From an uncultured Actinomycetes bacterium (GTDB lineage: Bacteria; Actinomycetota; UBA4738; HRBIN12), in NCBI GenBank assembly GCA_963734685.1, contig CAVTIC010000006.1, positions 211,320 through 275,319 of the forward strand: DNA of 64,000 nucleotides, written 5' to 3'. The first letter of the stretch is position 1, and each line of letters starts with the position of its first letter. The position numbers were made by a program, and so were the translations under genes. Positions 1-20,425 of this stretch are shown here, piece by piece. The notes under the pieces are model-generated. The model was not told the DNA's origin, searched no databases, and saw only the letters and a program-made list of their open reading frames with translations.

Positions 1-1344
1 CGCGATCGCGGTCTGTTGCCCGGGCGTGAGCCCGAGTACCGCGAGGCTCGGCACCAGCACCGCTTCGAGCCTCGTGAACAGGATCGTGCCGAGCAGCGCG
101 ATGCCGAACACGCCTCCGACCTCGCGGCTGGTGTTCGTCATCGCGGAGCCGAGACCGGCCCGCTGCGGTCCCACTGAGTTCATCACCGCGGCGGTCATGG
201 GCGCCATCGTGGCTCCCATTCCGTGACCCATGATCGCGAAGAGCACACCCATCACCCAGTACGGGGTGTCGGGGGTCAGACGCGAGAGCGCGAGGAGCCC
301 GCCGCCGGCCAGGATCAATCCGTACGTCATGGGCGCCCGCGATCCGTGCTTGGAGGCGTACCGTCCTGAGTTGGGTGCCGTCACCACGATCATCAGCGTC
401 ATCGGCAGGAACCGAAGGCCGGTCTCGAACGCCGTGTAGCCCCGCAGGAAGGGGCTCTGCATGAACAGGCTGAGGAAGAAGAACGTCGCGAACATGCCGA
501 GCGAGACGGAGAACGCGACGACGTTGCCGGCCGTGAACGCCGGGATGCGGAAGAACGAGAGCGGCATCATCGCGTGCGGGCTACGGCTTTCCCATACGAG
601 GAAGGCCACCCCGAGCGCTGCGCCGGCGACGAGGCCGGTCACGATCAGCGGATCGCTCCACCCTCGCTGGTTCGCCTCGATCAGCGAGTAGGTGAGTGCG
701 AACAGGGCGCCGGTGCCGAGCAGCAGGCCCCCGACGTCGAGGCTCCTCGCCTCGTCGGAGCGCGACTCACGCACCGTGCGAACGGCCACCGCGAACGCCA
801 GGATGCCGATCGGCACGTTCACGAAGAACACCGACTCCCAGCCGAGGTGCTCGACCATGTATCCGCCGAGCGTGGGACCGAGTGCGAGCGCCAGGCCAGA
901 CACGCCTGCCCACAGCCCGATCGCCTTGGCGCGCTCGTGCGGCGGGAACGTCACCGTGAGGATCGACAGCGTGCCGGGCATCAGCAGCGCAGCGCCGACG
1001 CCCTGCAGAGCGCGCGCGCCGATCAGCTGCGTGCTCGAGGAAGCGAGGCCGCACGCCAGCGACGACATCGTGAAGATCGCGAGCCCCGTCAGGAACATGC
1101 GCTTGCGCCCGTAGCGATCGCCCAGGATGCCGCCGGTGAGCAGCAGCGAGGCGAACGCGAGCACGTACCCGTCGACGATCCACTGCAGGTCGGACAGGCT
1201 GGCGCCCAGTTCGCGGTTGAGCGTCGGCAGCGCCACGTTCACGACGGTGTTGTCGATCATCACCATCGCGAGCGCGAAGCACATCGTGAGTAGCACGACG
1301 ACCTTCTCGCGCGCGTGCTCACCTTCGAAACCGAACAGACCCAC
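1..1344 (-). CDS. MFS transporter, DHA2/EmrB-like drug:H+ antiporter (C-terminus runs off the window edge)
   Basis: The minus-strand reading frame is open from GTG at 1344 (GGAG 5 nt upstream) to position 1. Translation VGLFGFEGEHAREKVVVLLTMCFALAMVMIDNTVVNVALPTL...GDRYGRKRMFLTGLAIF...LMPGTLSIL... shows the typical MFS 14-TMS motif pattern. It is absent from the ORF track because it is unterminated. Confidence 0.8.
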   Translation of the reverse strand, partial: MGLFGFEGEHAREKVVVLLTMCFALAMVMIDNTVVNVALPTLNRELGASLSDLQWIVDGYVLAFASLLLTGGILGDRYGRKRMFLTGLAIFTMSSLACGLASSSTQLIGARALQGVGAALLMPGTLSILTVTFPPHERAKAIGLWAGVSGLALALGPTLGGYMVEHLGWESVFFVNVPIGILAFAVAVRTVRESRSDEARSLDVGGLLLGTGALFALTYSLIEANQRGWSDPLIVTGLVAGAALGVAFLVWESRSPHAMMPLSFFRIPAFTAGNVVAFSVSLGMFATFFFLSLFMQSPFLRGYTAFETGLRFLPMTLMIVVTAPNSGRYASKHGSRAPMTYGLILAGGGLLALSRLTPDTPYWVMGVLFAIMGHGMGATMAPMTAAVMNSVGPQRAGLGSAMTNTSREVGGVFGIALLGTILFTRLEAVLVPSLAVLGLTPGQQTAIA

Positions 1345-1418: not shown

Positions 1419-2282
1419 TCAGTCCAGCCTGCGGTAGAGCCGGATCGCGAGCGGCACGGCGATCGCCAGGATGATCGCGATCCACATGACCGATTTGAAG
1501 AGCAGGTTCTCGAGCGTGTCGACGGGGACGTTCGTGATCGGGTCGGTGATGCCGAGGGGGCCGTTGGACAGGTACCTCGCGAGGTTGCACCAGATCGAGA
1601 CCGGATTCGCACGGGCGATGGGTTGGAGCCAGCTGACCATGCCCTCGACCGGCGCGAACGCCGAACTGACGAAGACGACCGGGAAGATCAGCGTGAACGA
1701 CGCCGCCTGCACCGCCTCGACCTGCTTCAGGGCCAGTCCCAGGCACGCGAAGACCCACGACCACGCGAACCCGACGGCGAGCACGAGCAACACGACGCCG
1801 ACGGCCGGCACGAACCCGTACATGAACCGGAAGCCCACGAGGTAGCCGATGACGATGACGAGCAACACGAGCAGGAAGTTCTTCGCGAGGTCGGACGTCG
1901 TGCGGCCGGCGAGGACCGCGGATCGCGCCATCGGCAGCGACCGGAATCGATCGATGATGCCGGTCTTCAAGTCCTCGGCGAGCCCGACCGCCGTCGTCGT
2001 CGCGCCGAAGATCGCGTTCTGCACGAAGATGCCCGGCATCAGGAACTGCACGTAGTCGAGGCCTTCGGGCAGGAAACGGAACTGGTTCGCGTAGATGAAC
2101 CGGAACAGCAGCACGAACATCACCGGCTGCACCAGCTCGAAGATGAACACCGTCGGGACCCTGGTGAGCGTCACGAGGTTCCGCCTCGCGACCAGCAGCC
2201 CGTCGGCCAGCGCGAGGGCGATGCGCCCACCCATGCTCGAGGGGGCCCGGCGGTCGGCCGGCGCCTGCACCACCGCACTCAT
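1419..2282 (-). CDS. ABC-2 type transporter permease (DrrB-like)
   Basis: 287-aa ORF with multi-pass hydrophobic segments. Its start overlaps the upstream ATPase stop (ATGA). Co-directional with the MFS gene. Confidence 0.85.
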   Translation of the reverse strand: MSAVVQAPADRRAPSSMGGRIALALADGLLVARRNLVTLTRVPTVFIFELVQPVMFVLLFRFIYANQFRFLPEGLDYVQFLMPGIFVQNAIFGATTTAVGLAEDLKTGIIDRFRSLPMARSAVLAGRTTSDLAKNFLLVLLVIVIGYLVGFRFMYGFVPAVGVVLLVLAVGFAWSWVFACLGLALKQVEAVQAASFTLIFPVVFVSSAFAPVEGMVSWLQPIARANPVSIWCNLARYLSNGPLGITDPITNVPVDTLENLLFKSVMWIAIILAIAVPLAIRLYRRLD

Positions 2283-3313
2283 GCGTTCTCCTCCTTCTTG
2301 GCTTTCTTGGCTCGGCGTCCCTTGCCCCGGTCACGCCCTGCCGGCTCGGTCTCGGGTTCGGAGCCGTCCTCGGCCACCCGGCCGGTGAGCGACAGGAACA
2401 CGTCGTCGAGCGTGGGCCGATGCAGGGCGATGTCGGCCACCCAGATCTTGTTCTCGTCGAGCCGGAGCACGCTCTCGCGCAGCGCGTCGAAGCCCTCGTT
2501 GCCCACAGGGATGCGCACGAGCCCTGCGTCGTCGTCGACGGCGGGCGCCCCGGCGCCGACGCCGGTGAGCGCCTCGGCCACGCGGGCGATGTTGGCTCGG
2601 TTCTCGACGTGCAGCTCGAGCACCTCGCCTCCGATGCGATCCTTGAGCTCGTCGCTCGTGCCCTCGGCGATCACGGTGCCGACGTCGATCACCGCGATGC
2701 GGTCGGCAAGCTGGTCGGCTTCATCCAGATATTGCGTCGTAAGCAGCAGCGTCGTGCCGTCTGCCTGCAGCTCGCGGATGAAGTCCCACACGTCGATGCG
2801 GCTGCGCGGGTCGAGACCGGTCGTGGGCTCGTCGAGGAACAGGATGTCGGGTCGCCCCACGAGGCTCGCCGCGAGATCGAGGCGCCGACGCATGCCGCCC
2901 GAGTACGTCTTCGCGGAGCGATCGGCTGCGTCGGACAGCCCGAAGCGCTCGAGCACCTCGCCGCCGCGCCGACGGGCCTCGGCCTTCGGCAGGTGGTAGA
3001 GGCGCCCGACGAGCTCGAGGTTCTCGCGTCCGGTCAGGTTCTCGTCGATCGCGGCACTCTGCCCCGCGAGCCCGATGCGGAAGCGCAGTTCCTCGGCGTC
3101 GCGCACGACGTCGAGGCCGTCGACCTCGGCGCGGCCGCTCGTCGGAGCGAGCAGTGTCGTGAGGATGCGCACGGCGGTCGTCTTACCGGCGCCGTTGGGT
3201 CCGAGCATGCCGAGCACGGTGCCCTTCTGCACCTCGAGATCGACACCCTTGAGTGCCTCGACCTCACCGAAGTGCTTGACCAGCTGTTCGGTCCTGATGA
3301 TGGGAGAGGACAT
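2279..3313 (-). CDS. ABC transporter ATP-binding protein (DrrA-like)
   Basis: Walker [10 protein letters not shown], signature [12 protein letters not shown], Walker [13 protein letters not shown]. Lys-rich C-terminal tail. Confidence 0.9.
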
Positions 3314-3410
3314 GGTTCGGAAACCCTACCGAGCCGGACCGACAACGCCCGCCCTCGAGACCATGCGCCTGTGCGGTTCCTCGACCGAAACAGGATCGGG
3401 TACGCCCGTG

Positions 3411-3434
3411 CCATATACCCCTGGGGGTATATGG
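3411..3434. promoter_or_regulatory. Perfect palindrome CCATATACCCC-TG-GGGGTATATGG, candidate CsoR/CstR-type operator
   Basis: Read directly: 11-bp arms around a TG centre, 34 nt upstream of the DUF156 repressor start and in the divergent intergenic region shared with the DrrA-like ABC gene. GC-rich ATACCCC...GGGGTAT palindromes are the known operator type for CsoR-family repressors. Confidence 0.55.
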
Positions 3435-3467
3435 TTCCAACGTCGTGACCACGAGGAGGAAACGCGG

Positions 3468-3737
3468 ATGAACGTCGACGCCACCGAGCTACGCGAGGTC
3501 GTGAACCGCCTGCATCGTGTGCAGGGCCAGGTCGAGGGCCTGGCGACGATGATCGAGGAAGGCCGGGACTGCCGCGACGTCGTTCGCCAGTTCGGGGCGT
3601 CGGCCCGAGCGCTCGAGCGTGCCGGAGCGCGATACCTGGTGGCGAACCTCACCGCCTGCCTCCGCGACGAAGAGGCCGCGGCGGCCGAGGGGTACGACAC
3701 CGAGGAGTTGCAGCGCCTGTTCCTGCAGCTGGCATGA
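3468..3737 (+). CDS. CsoR/RcnR-family (DUF156) transcriptional repressor with a C35-N60-C64 sensing triad
   Basis: 89 aa; AGGAGGA RBS 8 nt upstream. [22 protein letters not shown]...[10 protein letters not shown] aligns to RcnR/CsoR helices. The ORF track's 3075 start is an upstream extension. Confidence 0.85.
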
Positions 3738-3861
3738 GGTCCCGCGCCCCCCGAGTAATCCGTATTACGCCGAGGGAATAGTCGTCCGGGCGGCGTCGTT
3801 CTTGCACCTGCAAGGCCGGTGCGGTCACGTTGCCGCACCCCGACCCTACGGAGACGATGAG

Positions 3862-6222
3862 ATGCCCGACATCGATACCCCTGAGATCGACCAGCAGGTC
3901 CTACCCCTTCTTCCTCTGACCACGGGAGTCGTGCTGCCCGGCATGGTCGTGACCCTCACCCTTGAGACCGATGAAGCCCACGCCGCGGCCGAGGCCGCCG
4001 CGTCGACCGACGCCGCGTTGCTGCTGCTCGTGCCCAAGGTCGACGGCCGCTACGCCCGCGTGGGCACGGTCGCCAAGATCGAGGAGCTGGGCCAGACGCG
4101 CAGCGGCGTCGAGGCGCTGGTGATCCGCGGGCTCTCGCGCGCCGTGGTCGGTGTCGGGGTGCCCGGGACCGGCGAGGCCGTCTGGGTACAGGCCGAGCCG
4201 GTCGAGGAAGCTGAGGCGACTCCCCGCGCCCGTGAGCTCGTCCGCGAGTATCGGGCCGTGATCCAGAACATCGTCGAGGCGCGAGGCGTGCCGCAGGTGG
4301 CGGAGTTCCTCCGCGGCATCGATGACCCGGGACAGATCGCCGACACGTCCGGGTACTCGCCCGACCTGAGCTTCGAGCAGAAGATCGAGGTGCTCGAGAG
4401 CCTCGACGTCGAGGCGCGGCTCGAGCTGGTCACGACGTGGGCGAAGGACACGCTCGCCGAGATCGAGCTGAAGGACAAGATCCGCACCGACGTCAGCGAG
4501 GGCATGGAGAAGCGCCAGCGCGAGTTCCTGCTGCGCGAGCAGATGAGCGCGATCCGAAAGGAGCTCGGCGAGGACGGCGAGGAAGACGTCGTCGAGTCCT
4601 ACCGGGCGACGATCGCCGAAGCGGGGATGCCCGAGGACGTGCTCGTCCAGGCCGAGAAGGAGCTCGGGCGGCTCGAGCGCACCAGCGAGCAGTCGCCCGA
4701 GTACGGCTGGATCCGCACGTACCTCGACTGGCTGATCGACGTGCCCTGGGCCACCCGGACCGACGACAACCTCGAGATCGCAGAGGCGCGTGCGGTGCTC
4801 GACGCCGACCACGAAGGCCTGGACGATGTGAAGGACCGCATCCTCGAGTACCTGGCCGTGCGGAAGCTCCGCGCCGAGCGCGGGCTCGGGGAGGCGACCG
4901 GCCGCGGCTCGGGCGCGATCCTCACCCTGATCGGACCTCCCGGTGTGGGCAAGACGTCCCTCGGCGAGTCCGTCGCGCGCGCGCTCGGCCGCACGTTCGT
5001 GCGCGTCTCGCTCGGCGGTATCCACGACGAGGCCGAGATCCGTGGGCATCGGCGCACCTACGTGGGCGCGCTGCCCGGCCGCATCGTGCGCGCGCTGAAG
5101 GACGCCGGCTCGAAGAACCCCGTGATGATGCTCGACGAGATCGACAAGGTCGGGGCCGACTGGCGGGGCGATCCCTCGAGCGCGCTGCTCGAGGTGCTCG
5201 ACCCGGCGCAGAACCACACGTTCCGCGACCACTACCTCGACGTCGACCTCGACCTCAGCGAGGTCCTGTTCATCACCACGGCCAACGTGGCTGAGACGAT
5301 CCCCGGCCCCCTCTTCGACCGTATGGAAGTGATCCGGATCGACGGCTATACCGAGGACGAGAAGGTCGCGATCGCCAAGCACCACCTGGTGGCGCGGCAG
5401 CGCGAGCGCAACGGTCTTCGAGAGGACGAGGTTCGCTTCACCGACGACGCCCTGCGGACGATCGTCGGCGACTACACGAGGGAGGCCGGCGTGCGCAACC
5501 TCGAGCGGGAGCTCGGGAAGGCGCTGCGGAAGGTCGCGACGAAGGTCGCGTCGGACCACGTCGAGCTGCCCGTGACGATCGAGCCGGACGACGTGCGTGA
5601 GTACCTGGGGCGCCAGAAGTTCTTCTTCGAGGCCGCCGAACGCACCGCGGTGCCCGGCGTCGCGACCGGCCTCGCGGTCACGGGCGTCGGAGGAGACGTG
5701 CTGTTCATCGAGGCGTCGCGCGAAGCGGGCGGTGATTCACCCGACGGGCTGACCCTCACCGGGCAGCTCGGCGACGTGATGAAGGAATCCGCCCAGATCG
5801 CCCTGAGCTACGTGCGCTCGCACGCCGAGGAGCTCGGCATCGCGCCGGAGCGCCTGCGCGGACGGTTCCACGTGCACGTGCCGGCGGGCGCCGTGCCCAA
5901 AGACGGGCCGAGCGCGGGTGTCACGATGACGACCGCCCTCGTCTCGCTGCTCACCGACACCGAGGTACGCGCGGAGGTGGGCATGACCGGCGAGGTCACG
6001 CTGCAGGGCCGCGTGCTGCCGATCGGTGGCGTGAAGCAGAAGGTGCTCGCCGCACACCGATCCGGTCTGAAGGAGGTCGTGCTTCCGAAGCGGAACGAGG
6101 GCGATCTCGACGACGTCCCCGAGCAGGTTCGCGACCAGATGACGTTCCACGTCGTCGAGGGGATCGACGAGGTGCTCACGGTGGCGTTGCGCGCCGAGGA
6201 GGCGGTAGGGTCGGCCGCGTGA
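3862..6222 (+). CDS. lon: ATP-dependent Lon protease
   Basis: Lon N-terminal domain, AAA+ Walker [10 protein letters not shown], catalytic PKDGPSAGV...K. GGAG 9 nt upstream of ATG at 3862. Confidence 0.9.
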
Positions 6223-6818
6223 ACCTCGCGGTCTTCGGGGCGGCCGGCGCGACCGGCCGCCCACTCGTGGCGCAGGCGCTCGAACGGGGGCACATCGTCA
6301 CCGCGCTCGCACGCACGCCTCCCCTCGACGGCTCGCTCGACGGTGTCGCGCGGATCGTGACCGGAGACGCACGCAACGTCGACGCGGTCACATCCGCGCT
6401 GCGCGACGTCGATGCGGTGATCTCGGCGATGGGTCCCAGGGGCGCGGAGCCCGGCGCCGTCTACTCGAACGCGATCGGCACGCTCTCGCGCGCGATGCGC
6501 GACGCCGGGCCGCGGCGACTCGTGATCTCTGCGAACTCGCGGGTGTTCGACGACCGTCCCCTCGACGGTCCCTATGCAGCCGTCTCACAGGAGCACCGAG
6601 ACGCCCTGGCCACGCTCCGAGCATGCGATCTCGACTGGACCATGGTGGCCGCACCGATGCTCTCCGACGACGAGCCCACCGGTTCCTACGAGAGCGTCGT
6701 GGGAGCGCGCGGCCGCGGGAGATCGATCTCGCGTGCCGACCTCGCCTCCGCCCTGCTCGACGCCCTCGATCGCCCGGAGTGGATCGGCGAGGTCGTCGAC
6801 GTCTCGACCCCGGGTTGA
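6219..6818 (+). CDS. NAD(P)H-binding protein (SDR/NmrA-like)
   Basis: N-terminal Rossmann motif VFGAAGATG. Start GTG overlaps the lon stop (GTGA). Confidence 0.7.
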   Translation: MNLAVFGAAGATGRPLVAQALERGHIVTALARTPPLDGSLDGVARIVTGDARNVDAVTSALRDVDAVISAMGPRGAEPGAVYSNAIGTLSRAMRDAGPRRLVISANSRVFDDRPLDGPYAAVSQEHRDALATLRACDLDWTMVAAPMLSDDEPTGSYESVVGARGRGRSISRADLASALLDALDRPEWIGEVVDVSTPG

Positions 6819-6866: not shown

Positions 6867-7781
6867 GTGCCTGCCGATGACTCCCGCATGCTCGAGCTGA
6901 CCGGCCTGCGCCGGACCTTCGGTGGGATCGTCGCGCTCGACGACGTGTCGTTCACCGTGCCCGAGGGCAGCATCGTCGGGTTCGTCGGGCCGAACGGGGC
7001 GGGCAAGACGACCGCGATGCGCATCGCGCTCGGCGTGCTCACGCCCGACGCCGGCGAGGTGCGTTGGCGCAGCGAGCCGGTCGATGCGCGGGTCCGACGT
7101 CGCTTCGGCTACATGCCCGAGGAACGCGGGCTCTACCCGAAGATGCGTGTGCTCGACCAGCTCGTGTACCTGGCGAGACTGCACGGTGTCGGCCGGACCG
7201 ACGCGCGTCGACGCGCGCAGGAGACGCTCGACGTGCTGGGAGTGGTAGGGCGCTCGAAGGATCGCGTCGAGGCGCTCTCGCTCGGCAACCAACAGCGGGT
7301 GCAGCTGGCGTCGGCGCTCGTGCACGAACCGGACCTGCTCGTGCTCGATGAGCCCTTCTCGGGGCTCGACCCCGTGGGGGTCGACGTGCTCTCGGGCATG
7401 CTCAGGCGTCAGGCGACGAACCACGGCGTGCCCGTGGTCTTCTCGAGCCATCAGCTCGATCTCGTGGAACGGCTCTGCGACGCCGTCGTGCTGATCGACG
7501 GTGGCCGGATCGTGGCCCAGGGCACGATCGCGGAGCTGCGGTCACGCCGCGAGCGGCGCCTCTTCGTCGTGGAGGTACGTGGTGCGGTCGACGGATGGTA
7601 CGGGTCGATCCCGGGAGTGGCGCTCGCCGAGCCGTCGTCCGACGGGCTGGTACTCGAGCTGGGCGACGGTGTCGACGAACAGCGGGTGCTCGACCTCGCT
7701 CGTGCTTCCGGAGACGTGGTGCGGTTCGGTCCGGTGCGCCCGACCCTCGCCGAGTTGTTCCGAGAGGTGGTCGGCGCGTGA
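6867..7781 (+). CDS. ABC transporter ATP-binding protein (ABC-2 family, C-terminal DUF4162-like extension)
   Basis: Walker [10 protein letters not shown], signature LSLGNQQRV, Walker B LLVLDEPFSGLD. Alternative start at 6888. Confidence 0.85.
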   Translation: MPADDSRMLELTGLRRTFGGIVALDDVSFTVPEGSIVGFVGPNGAGKTTAMRIALGVLTPDAGEVRWRSEPVDARVRRRFGYMPEERGLYPKMRVLDQLVYLARLHGVGRTDARRRAQETLDVLGVVGRSKDRVEALSLGNQQRVQLASALVHEPDLLVLDEPFSGLDPVGVDVLSGMLRRQATNHGVPVVFSSHQLDLVERLCDAVVLIDGGRIVAQGTIAELRSRRERRLFVVEVRGAVDGWYGSIPGVALAEPSSDGLVLELGDGVDEQRVLDLARASGDVVRFGPVRPTLAELFREVVGA

Positions 7782-9013
7782 GCGATCAGCGTCCTCGCGA
7801 GACCGACCGTGGCACCTGGCGTCTCGTGGCGGCCCGCGACTTCTGGGTCCGCCTGCGCGACAAGGGGTTCGTGATCTCCACGGCGATCACGCTCACCGTG
7901 CTTTCGGTGTTCATCCTCGTCCGGGCCTACGGGGGCGACTCCGCGCCCTCGTTCGATCTGGGCCTGACGGGGCGCGATCCCGCAGCCCTCGAGACGACCG
8001 CGGCGGCGCTCGACGAGGTCGCCGCACGCAGGGGGATCGAGCTCATCACGCGGTTGTGGAACGACGAGGCGACCGCGGAGGAAGCGCTGCTGGCCGGACG
8101 GCTGGACGCCGTGCTGCGGGAGGACGGTACCCTCGTGGGCAAGGCCTCGGTGCCGCCCACGCTGACTCAGCTGGTTCAGGACGCCGTCGTGCGATCCCGG
8201 ATCACTCGCTCCCTCGACGAAGCCGGCGTACCGCCAGACGAGGTCGAGGATCTCCTCAACCAGACGGCGATCGAGGTGCGCACGCTCGAGCCGCAGGATC
8301 CGAACCGTGACGAGAACGCCGGCATCGCGTTCATCGCCGTGCTGCTCGCCTACGGCCAGCTCTTCGGCTACGGGGTGTGGGTCGCGACCGGCGTGATCGA
8401 GGAGAAGGCGTCGCGCGTGGTCGAGATCCTGCTCTCGGCGATCCGTCCGCGGCAGCTGCTCGCCGGCAAGATCGCCGGCATCGGCCTGCTCGGCATCGTG
8501 CAGCTGGCGTTCATCGCGACGTTCGCGATCGGACTCTCGCTCGTGACCGGCGCGCTCGAGCTCCCGGCCACCGCGGTGGGCATCGCGCTCGTGGTGCTCG
8601 TGTGGTTCGTGATGGGCTTCGCGTTCTACGCAGGCCTGTTCGCGGTCTCCGGCTCGCTCGTCTCCCGTATGGAGGAACTCCAGAACGCGCTGGTGCCGAT
8701 CAATCTCACGATCTTCGTCTCCTTCTTCATCTCGCTCGGCGCGCTCGAGAACCCCGACTCCACGCTGTCGGTCGTGGCGTCGGTGCTGCCGTTCTCGTCG
8801 GCGCTCGCGATGCCGGTGCGCATCGCACTCGGGTCGGCGACGGCGGCGCAGATCGCGCTGTCGGTCTCGCTGCTCGTCGCCGGTACGGGGTTGCTGGTGC
8901 CGCTCTCGGCCCGCCTGTACGCCGGGGCGGTGCTGAAGACCGGCTCCCGCGTGAAGCTCAGCGAGGCGTGGCGGTCGGCCGCGTCGAACGGCGGCGCGAC
9001 GGCGGATGCCTGA
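7778..9013 (+). CDS. ABC-2 family transporter permease
   Basis: GTG start overlaps the ATPase stop. About 6 TMS after a soluble N-terminal loop. The ORF-track start at 7595 is a GC-rich extension. Confidence 0.8.
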   Translation: MSDQRPRETDRGTWRLVAARDFWVRLRDKGFVISTAITLTVLSVFILVRAYGGDSAPSFDLGLTGRDPAALETTAAALDEVAARRGIELITRLWNDEATAEEALLAGRLDAVLREDGTLVGKASVPPTLTQLVQDAVVRSRITRSLDEAGVPPDEVEDLLNQTAIEVRTLEPQDPNRDENAGIAFIAVLLAYGQLFGYGVWVATGVIEEKASRVVEILLSAIRPRQLLAGKIAGIGLLGIVQLAFIATFAIGLSLVTGALELPATAVGIALVVLVWFVMGFAFYAGLFAVSGSLVSRMEELQNALVPINLTIFVSFFISLGALENPDSTLSVVASVLPFSSALAMPVRIALGSATAAQIALSVSLLVAGTGLLVPLSARLYAGAVLKTGSRVKLSEAWRSAASNGGATADA

Positions 9014-19265: not shown

Positions 19266-19374
19266 CCGGCGATACCCATATCGATATCGACCGCGGGCAT
19301 CGCGCCCCGACCCTCGATCGATACCGGGATCGGTATCAGCCCGGGTTCTGTCGATCCATCCGTATGCTCGTGTC

Positions 19375-20425
19375 ATGCAGACGGAACGGCGGCTGACCTC
19401 GTTCAGCCACGGCGCGGGTTGTGGATGCAAGCTCGGGCCGCAGCAACTCAGCGAGGTGCTCGGAACGCTCTCTCTCCCGGGGGTTCCGCCCGAGGTGCTC
19501 GTCGCTGCCGACACCGAGCGACGACGCGGCCGTCTACGCGCTCGAGGACGACCGCGCGCTCGTCGCGACGCTCGACTACTTCACCCCGATCGTCGACGAC
19601 CCCTACGACTGGGGCCGCATCGCGGCCACGAACGCGATGAGCGACGTCTACGCGATGGGTGGCACGCCGTTCCTGGGCCTCAACATCGTGAACTGGCCGA
19701 TCGACGACCTGCCCGCGGAGATGCTCGGCCGCGTGCTGCAGGGAGGCGCCGACGCTGCGGGAGCCGTCGGCGTGCCCGTGCTCGGGGGGCACTCGATCAC
19801 CGACCCCGAGCCGAAGTACGGCATGGTCGTGCTCGGCTTCGTCGATCCGCGCCGCATGCTGCGGAACTCGACCGCGGTGGCCGGCGATTCGCTGGTGCTC
19901 ACGAAGCCGCTCGGCCTCGGCGTGATCTCCACGGCGGTCAAGCGCGGCGTCGCGACCGACGAGATGCTCGCGACCGCCGTCGAGCTGATGACGACCCCGA
20001 ACCGAGCGGCGAGCGAGGCCGTGAACGAGATCGGCGCCGACGCCGCGACCGACGTCACCGGGTTCGGCCTGCTGGGTCACCTCCACCGCATGCTGCTCGC
20101 GAGCGGCGTCGCCGCCGAGATCGACGCGAGCGCCGTGCCCCTGATCGCCGGTGCGCTCGACCTCGCTCGCAGCGGGGTCGTGCCCGGCGGCACGCAGCGG
20201 AACCACGCCTACGTCTCGCCGCACGTCGACTGGGGCGACCTGACCGAGCCCGAGCAGCTCCTGCTCGCGGACGCCCAGACGAGCGGGGGATTGCTCGTCG
20301 CGACCCGGGAACCCGACGCGCTCATCAACGCACTCACCGAGCGAGGTGTCGCCGGCGCCCAGGTCGGTCGCGTTCGCGCCGGAGCAGCGGGCGCCCTGGC
20401 CGTCACCGGCCGGCTCCCGGAATAA
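19375..20425 (+). pseudogene. selD: Selenide, water dikinase (selenophosphate synthetase SelD), apparent +1 frame change near 19505-19520
   Basis: N-terminus MQTERRLTSFSHGAGCGCKLGPQQLSEVL (frame of track ORF 18775) matches E. coli SelD including the GAGCGCK Cys17/Lys20 site. The rest (DDAAVYALEDDRALVATLDYFTPIVDDPYDWGRIAATNAMSDVYAMGG...) is in the frame of ORF 19421..20425. The junction looks like a 2-bp CG deletion (expected ...ADTERDDAAVY). Confidence 0.8.

Follow-up and report, generated by a model that had tools for sequence, protein, structure and literature searches.

A 64,000-nucleotide stretch of an uncultured Actinomycetes genome (contig CAVTIC010000006.1, positions 211,320 to 275,319; called the window here and numbered from its first letter) carries, immediately upstream of the protease gene lon, a gene for a small repressor of the CsoR/RcnR superfamily. 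The regulator gene starts with ATG, with a ribosome-binding site, GAGGAGG, 8 nt upstream. An inverted repeat of CsoR/CstR type lies in the 154-nt intergenic region that separates it from a divergent drrA-drrB-MFS cluster (MFS, major facilitator superfamily). On the other side, lon begins 124 nt after the regulator stop codon, and its own stop overlaps the start of an NAD(P)H-binding gene by 4 nt (GTGA, 6219-6222). We read the regulator, with a probability of roughly 0.78, as an autoregulated sensor of sulfane sulfur (persulfide or polysulfide) of the CstR/ScCsoR type that was orphaned by deletion of its effector genes, the sensing role being deduced from homology and gene context.

The gene order agrees with the original prediction, which was made from the sequence without database searches. 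Pfam matches identify lon and the NmrA-like NAD(P)H-binding gene downstream, as well as the ATPase and the permease of the divergent cluster; the MFS gene, the final gene of that cluster, was recognized through a 97%-identical contig (L013), from which its approximate coordinates were carried over by blastn offset (Table 1). The position of the regulator directly upstream of lon follows from the open reading frame (ORF) coordinates and recurs on six contigs, each assembled independently from a separate sample (ENA, JGI, Logan). The DNA of these contigs is 95-97% identical to the window and their regulator protein is identical, so that a misassembly can be dismissed. The arrangement is real, and a natural population of this uncultured soil actinomycete maintains it stably.

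Table 1. Features of the regulator-lon locus, in window coordinates.
Feature	Position	Strand	Basis or remark
MFS transporter gene, cut off by window start	~1..1344	-	PF07690 MFS_1, 525 aa, in gene table of 97%-identical contig L013
ABC-2 type permease, DrrB-like	1419..2282	-	Pfam ABC2_membrane, E 4e-22
ABC ATPase, DrrA-like, divergent from regulator	2279..3313	-	Pfam ABC_tran, E 1e-30; DrrA1-3_C match weak
Putative CsoR/CstR-type operator CCATATACCCC-TG-GGGGTATATGG	3411..3434	.	Inverted repeat fitting ATACC-N6-GGTAT
Possible -10 element TATGGT (TANNNT type)	3430..3435	+	Inferred; overlaps right operator arm
Probable CstR/ScCsoR-type (x-C-N-C) repressor gene, 89 aa	3468..3737	+	PF02583; Cys35, Asn60, Cys64
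Junction where tauE-rhodanese-PDO (persulfide dioxygenase) genes are missing	3738..3754	.	Comparison with L001 flanks
Palindrome GTAAT-N4-ATTAC just upstream of lon promoter motif	3755..3768	.	Kept in all lon-carrying loci, whatever gene precedes
SigR/SigH-type ECF (extracytoplasmic function) promoter motif GGGAAT-N17-CGTT (= GGAAT-N18-GTT)	3774..3800	+	62 nt upstream of lon ATG
Palindrome CTTGCA-CC-TGCAAG at expected lon transcription start	3801..3814	.	Conserved or nearly so in relatives
lon (ATP-dependent protease La), 786 aa	3862..6222	+	Pfam Lon_C E 6e-84, LON_substr_bdg, AAA, Lon_lid
NAD(P)H-binding (NmrA-like/SDR, short-chain dehydrogenase/reductase) protein	6219..6818	+	Pfam NAD_binding_10 E 7e-34, NmrA E 5e-7

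The regulator belongs to PF02583 (CsoR/RcnR superfamily, DUF156), which it matches over residues 9-84 with an E-value of 4.1e-19 and 69.2 bits against a cut-off of 22.8 bits; the Pfam name of the family is 'metal-sensitive transcriptional repressor'. This match and a count of the residues bear out the predicted family and the predicted C35-N60-C64 pattern. The solved structures retrieved with phmmer are those of InrS, CsoR, CstR and FrmR, with InrS scoring highest. In the alignment with the S. pneumoniae CstR (PDB ID: 7MQ1), 'GRDCRDV...VANLTACL' of the window protein pairs with 'DRDCADI...TENLTECI', while the corresponding positions of copper sensors read 'RYCID...H..HC'. Asn60 falls on the 'wedge' residue Asn55 of the pneumococcal protein, which stands in place of the Cu(I)-ligating His of CsoR (PMC8643695); an Asn at this position does occur among CstR-type proteins, as the original prediction had stated. 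Asp34 precedes Cys35 where the Cu(I)-sensing CsoRs carry a Tyr ('RDCrD' against 'RYCiD' or 'vYCiD') that is kept in all Cu(I)-sensing clusters (PMC8643695), and the His at position Y that the Cu(I)-sensing x-C-H-C set requires is replaced by Asn60. The two cysteines lie 29 residues apart, as do C37/C66 of ScCsoR, the Streptomyces coelicolor protein, and C30/C59 of the S. pneumoniae CstR (SpCstR). RcnR and InrS are distinguished by His3 at position W and FrmR by Pro2, in each case with His at Y (PMC8643695 and established knowledge). The N-terminus of the window protein, M-N-V-D-A-T, has no His, Cys or Pro2, and these three fingerprints are therefore excluded. The alignment with InrS, CsoR, CstR and FrmR structures, a comparison of the kind suggested as a check, thus returns an x-C-x-C fingerprint with N60 at the CstR Asn55 position. 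It is this fingerprint that defines the candidate persulfide-sensor clusters 3, 4 and 10 in the sequence similarity network (SSN) of the CsoR superfamily (PMC8643695).

The same residues were followed through the homologues. In 25 close homologues C35 is invariant, C64 is kept in at least 90% and Asn at Y in 23. A HMMER search of 1.84 billion representative sequences (50% identity) gave 1,815 relatives; among the best 150 of these, the X/Y/Z residues are C-G-C in 90, C-N-C in 13, C-Q-C in 8 and C-H-C in only 5, and an Asp or Glu stands before the first Cys in 129. By these comparisons the window protein lies in x-C-x-C sequence space, and Asn at Y is a minority variant common to the Firmicute cluster-10 CstRs rather than a hallmark of the x-C-x-C family. 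The prediction that Cys/Asn/Cys marks a CstR-type protein and not a copper sensor is therefore supported, with one refinement: Asn55 of SpCstR and the orthologue neighbourhoods described below agree with it, but Asn is not the defining residue, the Y position being Gly in about 90 of the 150. The nearest neighbours of the window protein are actinomycete and not Firmicute; they are x-C-x-C proteins, mostly C-G-C, in the same gene context. This is consistent with a place in cluster 3, a large actinomycete group to which both the S. coelicolor 'CsoR (CstR)' and Rv1766 belong (PMC8643695).

A copper (or nickel/cobalt) sensor of CsoR/RcnR type, with its cop genes elsewhere in the genome, is one rival reading. 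The Cu(I)-sensing CsoRs that were compared (M. tuberculosis CsoR and RicR, and the CsoRs of S. lividans, B. subtilis and G. thermodenitrificans) resemble the window case in their fold, in both Cys positions and in an operator that has a GC tract between AT-rich inverted repeats, an operator type found throughout the superfamily. InrS is the top PDB match by score, and RicR is the best match in NCBIfam, although at 40 bits against a 175-bit cut-off; the NCBIfam matches (RicR, FrmR, RcnR) were all sub-threshold, and no CstR-specific model was matched. Against a metal sensor stand the lack of a His at Y, of the Tyr before Cys35 and of an N-terminal His or Cys ligand. Cu(I) releases the Cu(I)-sensing CsoRs from DNA but does not release CstR, which has no His at Y (PMC8643695). 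Those CsoRs neighbour copZ/copA, which are lacking here: no ORF in the 64-kb window has the DKTGT motif of P-type ATPases or the GMxCxxC motif of heavy-metal-associated (HMA) domains, and the orthologues stand in sulfur-oxidation operons, not in cop operons. We consider a metal sensor extremely improbable.

The neighbourhoods of the orthologues give decisive support to the assignment as a persulfide sensor. A one-genome-per-species search with an alignment of the 25 homologues found 11 loci (L001-L011), all in metagenome-assembled genomes (MAGs) of uncultured actinomycetes; the orthologues in related actinomycete MAG loci are 66-92% identical to the window regulator. In L001-L004, L007, L008 and L138 the regulator is followed, at intervals of 0-10 nt, by genes for TauE (Pfam E-value 4e-47), a rhodanese of 111 residues (2e-20) and a 466-residue protein that joins a metallo-β-lactamase (MBL) domain to two rhodanese domains, the architecture of CstB or type III persulfide dioxygenase. 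The MBL-rhodanese gene alone follows the regulator in L005, L009 and L010. Where lon and the NAD(P)H-binding gene are present behind the operon (L001, L005, L007 and L008), they come after the sulfur genes; in L002-L004, L009 and L010 lon is not downstream of it. The cultured homologues, 44-53% identical and of the C-G-C type, are found on plasmids of Streptomyces, Pseudonocardia and Arthrobacter, among genes annotated as rhodanese, TauE/SafE and MBL-fold proteins, and these plasmid loci have ATACCC-N4-GGGTAT sites upstream of both the regulator and the MBL gene. On the plasmids of Streptomyces sp. SAT1 (L146) and Arthrobacter sp. Hiyo8 (L148), the second site lies upstream of a divergent or separately transcribed MBL (PDO) gene, at 7894-7909 and 1976-1991, respectively, mirroring the control of several promoters described for ScCsoR. 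The sulfur cluster of both plasmids adjoins arsenic or heavy-metal resistance genes.

The putative operator of the window is of the same kind. The original prediction called it a perfect 24-bp palindrome located 34 nt upstream of the gene. Its arms (3411-3421 and 3424-3434) are indeed perfect, with 11 nt each and 100% complementarity, but the TG at the centre is not its own complement, so the 24-mer falls just short of a strict palindrome, and the measured distance from the repeat to the ATG is 33 nt. The inner part, ATACC-CCTGGG-GGTAT at 3415-3430, fits the ScCsoR consensus exactly; ScCsoR binds ATACCn6GGTAT in electrophoretic mobility shift assays and is released by polysulfide (PMC7533328). 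The S. mitis cst operator ATATACCCTTATGGGGTATAT is closely similar to the site as well (PMC8643695). An equivalent site, ATATACCCC-NN-GGGGTATA, is found about 30-45 nt upstream of the regulator start in the 11 related genome loci and in four metagenome loci, and all fifteen have a TANNNT hexamer that either overlaps the right arm or adjoins it. This layout is what would be expected for promoter occlusion and autoregulation, the putative promoter being assigned from the hexamer; a scan with the sigma-70 consensus found no match. The conserved operator and its overlap with TANNNT thus lend support to the autoregulation that had been predicted.

Further copies of the operator, which had been proposed as a way to define the regulon, were sought in two places. 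The core ATACCCCTGGGGGTAT (3415-3430) is present in a single copy in the 64 kb, even when up to 3 mismatches are allowed. In metagenomes, 120 stretches with TATACCCC-NN-GGGGTATA were found among the matches listed. Counted with naive ORF calling and regular-expression detection of CopA, 39 of these 120 have TauE, rhodanese or MBL homologues within 4 kb, while a CopA-like ATPase occurs in only 5. None of the contigs listed in the operator-core scan, which was aimed also at a relocated cst locus, came from the samples of the window. Two relaxed ATACC-N6-GGTAT sites, at 19272 and 19321, were considered as members of the regulon and rejected, as they lack the C4/G4 tract and such sites number 5 in the window against 3.8 expected.

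As the operator lies in the intergenic region common to both directions, about 100 nt upstream of the drrA start, the palindrome might instead serve the divergent promoter, so that the regulator would control the drrA-drrB-MFS exporter cluster. The drrAB genes are found on the same side of the regulator in all related loci. However, the distance from the operator to the regulator start is fixed, whereas drrA lies anywhere between about 50 and more than 500 nt away, and unrelated genes intervene in L002, L004 (~4394-5866), L005 and L007 (~4783-5934). These encode either a homologue of the MttB-family trimethylamine methyltransferases (Pfam E-value 6e-86) or a beta-propeller (DUF6923, Vgb-lyase-like); by this comparison the region between drrA and the regulator shows itself to be a hotspot of gene gain and loss. 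DrrAB-type exporters have no known link to CstR regulons, and control of this cluster appears improbable.

The window differs from the relatives described above in what follows the regulator. A tblastn search with the TauE, rhodanese and MBL-rhodanese proteins gave no match in the 64 kb, and the window contains no second CsoR-family gene. In L001, tauE begins with its ATG 9 nt after the regulator stop, and the PDO gene ends 8 nt ahead of the GTAAT palindrome. The spacer of the window corresponds to the upstream region of lon in the relatives together with the few bases that follow the regulator stop in L001, and this alignment is most simply read as the clean loss of a segment of about 2.6 kb containing tauE, rhd and pdo. 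Outgroup clades retain the sulfur genes. The same gene-less arrangement is seen in L011, L141 (P0009) and L143 (P0015), which form one clade in the Lon tree with 99% bootstrap. Since L001, which has kept the genes, is closer to this clade than the window is, the sulfur genes were probably lost at least twice, independently. The original prediction had found the regulon not obvious. It is true that no cop or cst genes adjoin the regulator, but the puzzle is now attributed to the deletion of the cognate genes. In L139 (P0008, JGI Ga0484862_0022523, 1176-1905), whose regulator is 88% identical, the position of tauE-rhd-pdo between regulator and lon is held by a gene pair on the opposite strand, encoding a PIN-domain protein (Pfam E-value 2e-12) and an 84-residue partner, which looks like a toxin-antitoxin pair of VapBC type.

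The regulator has remained under purifying selection. For the window gene, the ratio of nonsynonymous to synonymous divergence (dN/dS) is 0.07-0.09 against L001-L004 and 0.07 against L011; among L011, L141 and L143 it is 0.09-0.13 at dS values of 0.6-0.8. As the deletion is common to these last three, practically all the divergence among them is younger than it. The low dN/dS and the retained operator indicate that the gene is not decaying; it is presumably still working, given its intact frame, its perfect operator arms and the selection that has preserved it. The opposite reading, a decaying, functionless remnant of a recent deletion, is already disfavoured and seems to us very improbable. 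The cognate genes are gone, and the L011 orthologue (6001-6267) has Pro at the nearly invariant Arg40 (R40P) and an operator (~5925-5945) whose centre is one base shorter, ATACCCC-C-GGGGTAT. These oddities may, however, be long-read errors: drrA and drrB of L011 are also split into several frames, either by real decay or by homopolymer errors in a long-read MAG. Apart from the dN/dS values, the good ribosome-binding site and a protein that is identical on six contigs with DNA only 95-97% identical to the window speak against a remnant.

A regulator that is kept in this way probably has further targets, either sulfur genes at a distance or lon through read-through. The first would be a persulfide dioxygenase, sulfide:quinone reductase (SQR) or rhodanese locus elsewhere in the genome with the same operator. 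The persistence of selection and of a perfect operator beyond the loss of the adjacent genes would then be explained; ScCsoR controls three promoters in S. coelicolor (PMC7533328), and the plasmid relatives have their second operator upstream of the MBL gene. The 64 kb at hand, by contrast, contain no other operator of the C4/G4 type, no other CsoR-family gene and no TauE, rhodanese or MBL homologue, and we regard distal targets as a serious possibility, though one somewhat short of an even chance.

The second possibility depends on what drives lon, whose upstream region appears to be a control region in its own right. The 64 kb contain a single match to the SigR/SigH-type motif, where 0.15 would be expected by chance, and it is kept upstream of lon in L001, L005, L007, L008, L011, L141 and L143. 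Across the loci its form is GGGAAT-N17/18-CGTT, and that of the palindrome behind it is CTTGCA-NN-TGCAAG. The published consensus sequences are GGAATN18GTT for SigR and GGGAA-N18-20-CGTT for SigH-like factors (PMC2375139), and the SigR regulon is described as including chaperones and proteases of protein quality control (PMC5472188). The likeness to the promoters of SigR (S. coelicolor) and SigH (mycobacteria, corynebacteria) is one of sequence match. In S. coelicolor, lon itself is reportedly a SigR target. The two palindromes that flank the motif correspond to no regulator site known to us and are not HAIR, CIRCE or ClgR-like. Most likely, lon is a thiol-stress ECF-sigma target by itself and its adjacency to the regulator is incidental; given the conserved motif, lon does not evidently belong to the regulon. 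In L001 (11322), L005 (10182), L007 (11281), L008 and L011 (8740) the NAD(P)H-binding gene directly adjoins lon, no more than about 20 nt away, which suggests a conserved operon of the two genes.

A rewired regulator would nevertheless account for its own retention: transcription from the sulfane-sulfur-responsive promoter would run on across the 124-nt spacer to include lon and the NAD(P)H-binding gene, and lon would be induced both from its SigR/SigH-type promoter and by persulfide stress. The regulator and lon have the same orientation with a short gap, and in at least two lineages, where the cst genes were lost while lon stayed directly downstream, purifying selection still acts on regulator and operator. 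The gap between regulator (or pdo) and lon holds no conserved terminator, only one weak, non-conserved terminator-like hairpin, and no sigma-70 match; the regulator-lon gap has no Rfam match, and its RNA fold is no better than that of shuffled sequences (z-score -0.8). In a high-GC actinomycete, however, the failure to predict a terminator counts for little. In every locus lon has its own conserved promoter motif upstream, the operon of L002-L004, L009 and L010 has no lon behind it, and in L139 the opposite-strand PIN gene pair parts the two genes. Read-through control is, in our judgement, unlikely. A broader proposal, that the repressor was kept after repeated independent loss because of a second role, acquired or ancestral, for which persulfide-responsive read-through into the lon/NAD(P)H-binding operon would be one candidate, is quite unlikely as well; if it were true, protein quality control would be tied directly to the sensing of reactive sulfur.

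For the favoured reading, an orphaned sulfane-sulfur sensor, the following course of events can be proposed. A tetrameric repressor would sense sulfane sulfur through the thiol pair Cys35/Cys64'. If it works as ScCsoR and CstR do, its reduced form would bind ATACC-N6-GGTAT over its own promoter and repress it, and persulfidation or polysulfide cross-linking of the thiols would release it from the DNA. The ancestral operon, autoregulated and located in this lineage just upstream of lon, may have consisted of the regulator, tauE, a rhodanese gene and a persulfide dioxygenase-rhodanese fusion, and would have oxidised sulfane sulfur and exported sulfite. The deletion would have removed the three effector genes and left the regulator, the operator and a spacer that is essentially the native lon upstream region, with lon and the NAD(P)H-binding gene as a separate unit under their own SigR/SigH-type promoter motif. 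The regulator would, at a minimum, still control itself; any further targets would lie outside the window or be reached by read-through.

Several points weigh against this account. Persulfide sensing is assigned by homology and gene context, and the window lacks the effector genes that belong to such a regulator. At about 36 bits, the CstRs in the PDB match no better than InrS or CsoR do, so that sequence score alone cannot separate the subfamilies, and the identity to the cultured C-G-C homologues does not exceed 53%. The support of the Lon tree for independent deletions is only 45-75% at the critical deep nodes. Finally, strong purifying selection after the gene loss implies a role that the proposed explanation does not identify.

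Among known systems, the locus corresponds, by this analogy, to the experimentally characterised ScCsoR circuit of actinomycetes, here with an orphaned regulator. ScCsoR (SCO0620) requires Cys37 and Cys66 and represses itself, a PDO-rhodanese gene, tauE and a rhodanese gene (PMC7533328), and it is placed in SSN cluster 3 as an actinomycete CstR (PMC8643695). Judged by its published features, it resembles the window regulator in being an actinomycete PF02583 protein with cysteines at the same spacing and no His ligand, in the site ATACC-N6-GGTAT and autoregulation (PMC7533328), and in the four-gene set of regulator, PDO-rhodanese, TauE and rhodanese that the window protein's orthologues share. 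It differs in that its three effector genes have been deleted in the window, and in layout: in the window lineage the regulator leads a co-directional operon, whereas ScCsoR lies between divergent units. At Y, the window protein has Asn where the cultured actinomycete homologues examined have Gly. The Firmicute CstRs, of which that of S. aureus belongs to cluster 4 and those of E. faecalis and S. pneumoniae (PDB IDs: 7MQ1-3) to cluster 10 (PMC8643695), share the x-C-x-C pattern, the Asn at Y within 'NLTxC' (N55 in SpCstR), the Asp before the N-terminal Cys and a very similar operator core, ATATACCC-N-GGGGTATAT. In contrast, their regulons are cst operons (CstA/CstB/SQR or RhdA/CoAPR/RhdB), and their overall similarity to the window protein is as low as the bit score given above.

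Annotation pipelines label such a protein a 'metal-sensitive' or 'FrmR/CsoR family' regulator. From its fingerprint, its operator and the context of its orthologues, it is better read as a reactive-sulfur sensor, and comparative genomics suggests that its position next to lon is a deletion scar and not a new regulon. The current understanding of the CsoR/CstR family is not altered by this case. The retention of sensor and operator in several soil actinomycete lineages after the loss of the enzymes could, however, reveal more CstR targets.

Two further observations concern other parts of the window. The two relaxed sites rejected above, GATACCCATATCGATATCG and GATACCGGGATCGGTATC, lie 49 nt apart (19272-19336) and 40-100 nt upstream of a selD-like gene (19375-20425) whose product begins with MQTERRLTSFSHGAGCGCK. 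Its frame shifts at about 19515-19525, with 47 N-terminal codons in one frame and the rest in the 19421..20425 frame. It is either a pseudogene or the result of a long-read assembly error, and Pfam is silent on the un-shifted translation. Directly 3' of the NAD(P)H-binding gene, at 6867-9013, lies a second DrrA-type ABC ATPase (ABC_tran and DrrA1-3_C, E-value 1e-11), which is followed by an ABC-2 permease in the gene tables of near-identical contigs; the regulator-lon unit is thus flanked by two separate DrrAB-like exporters.

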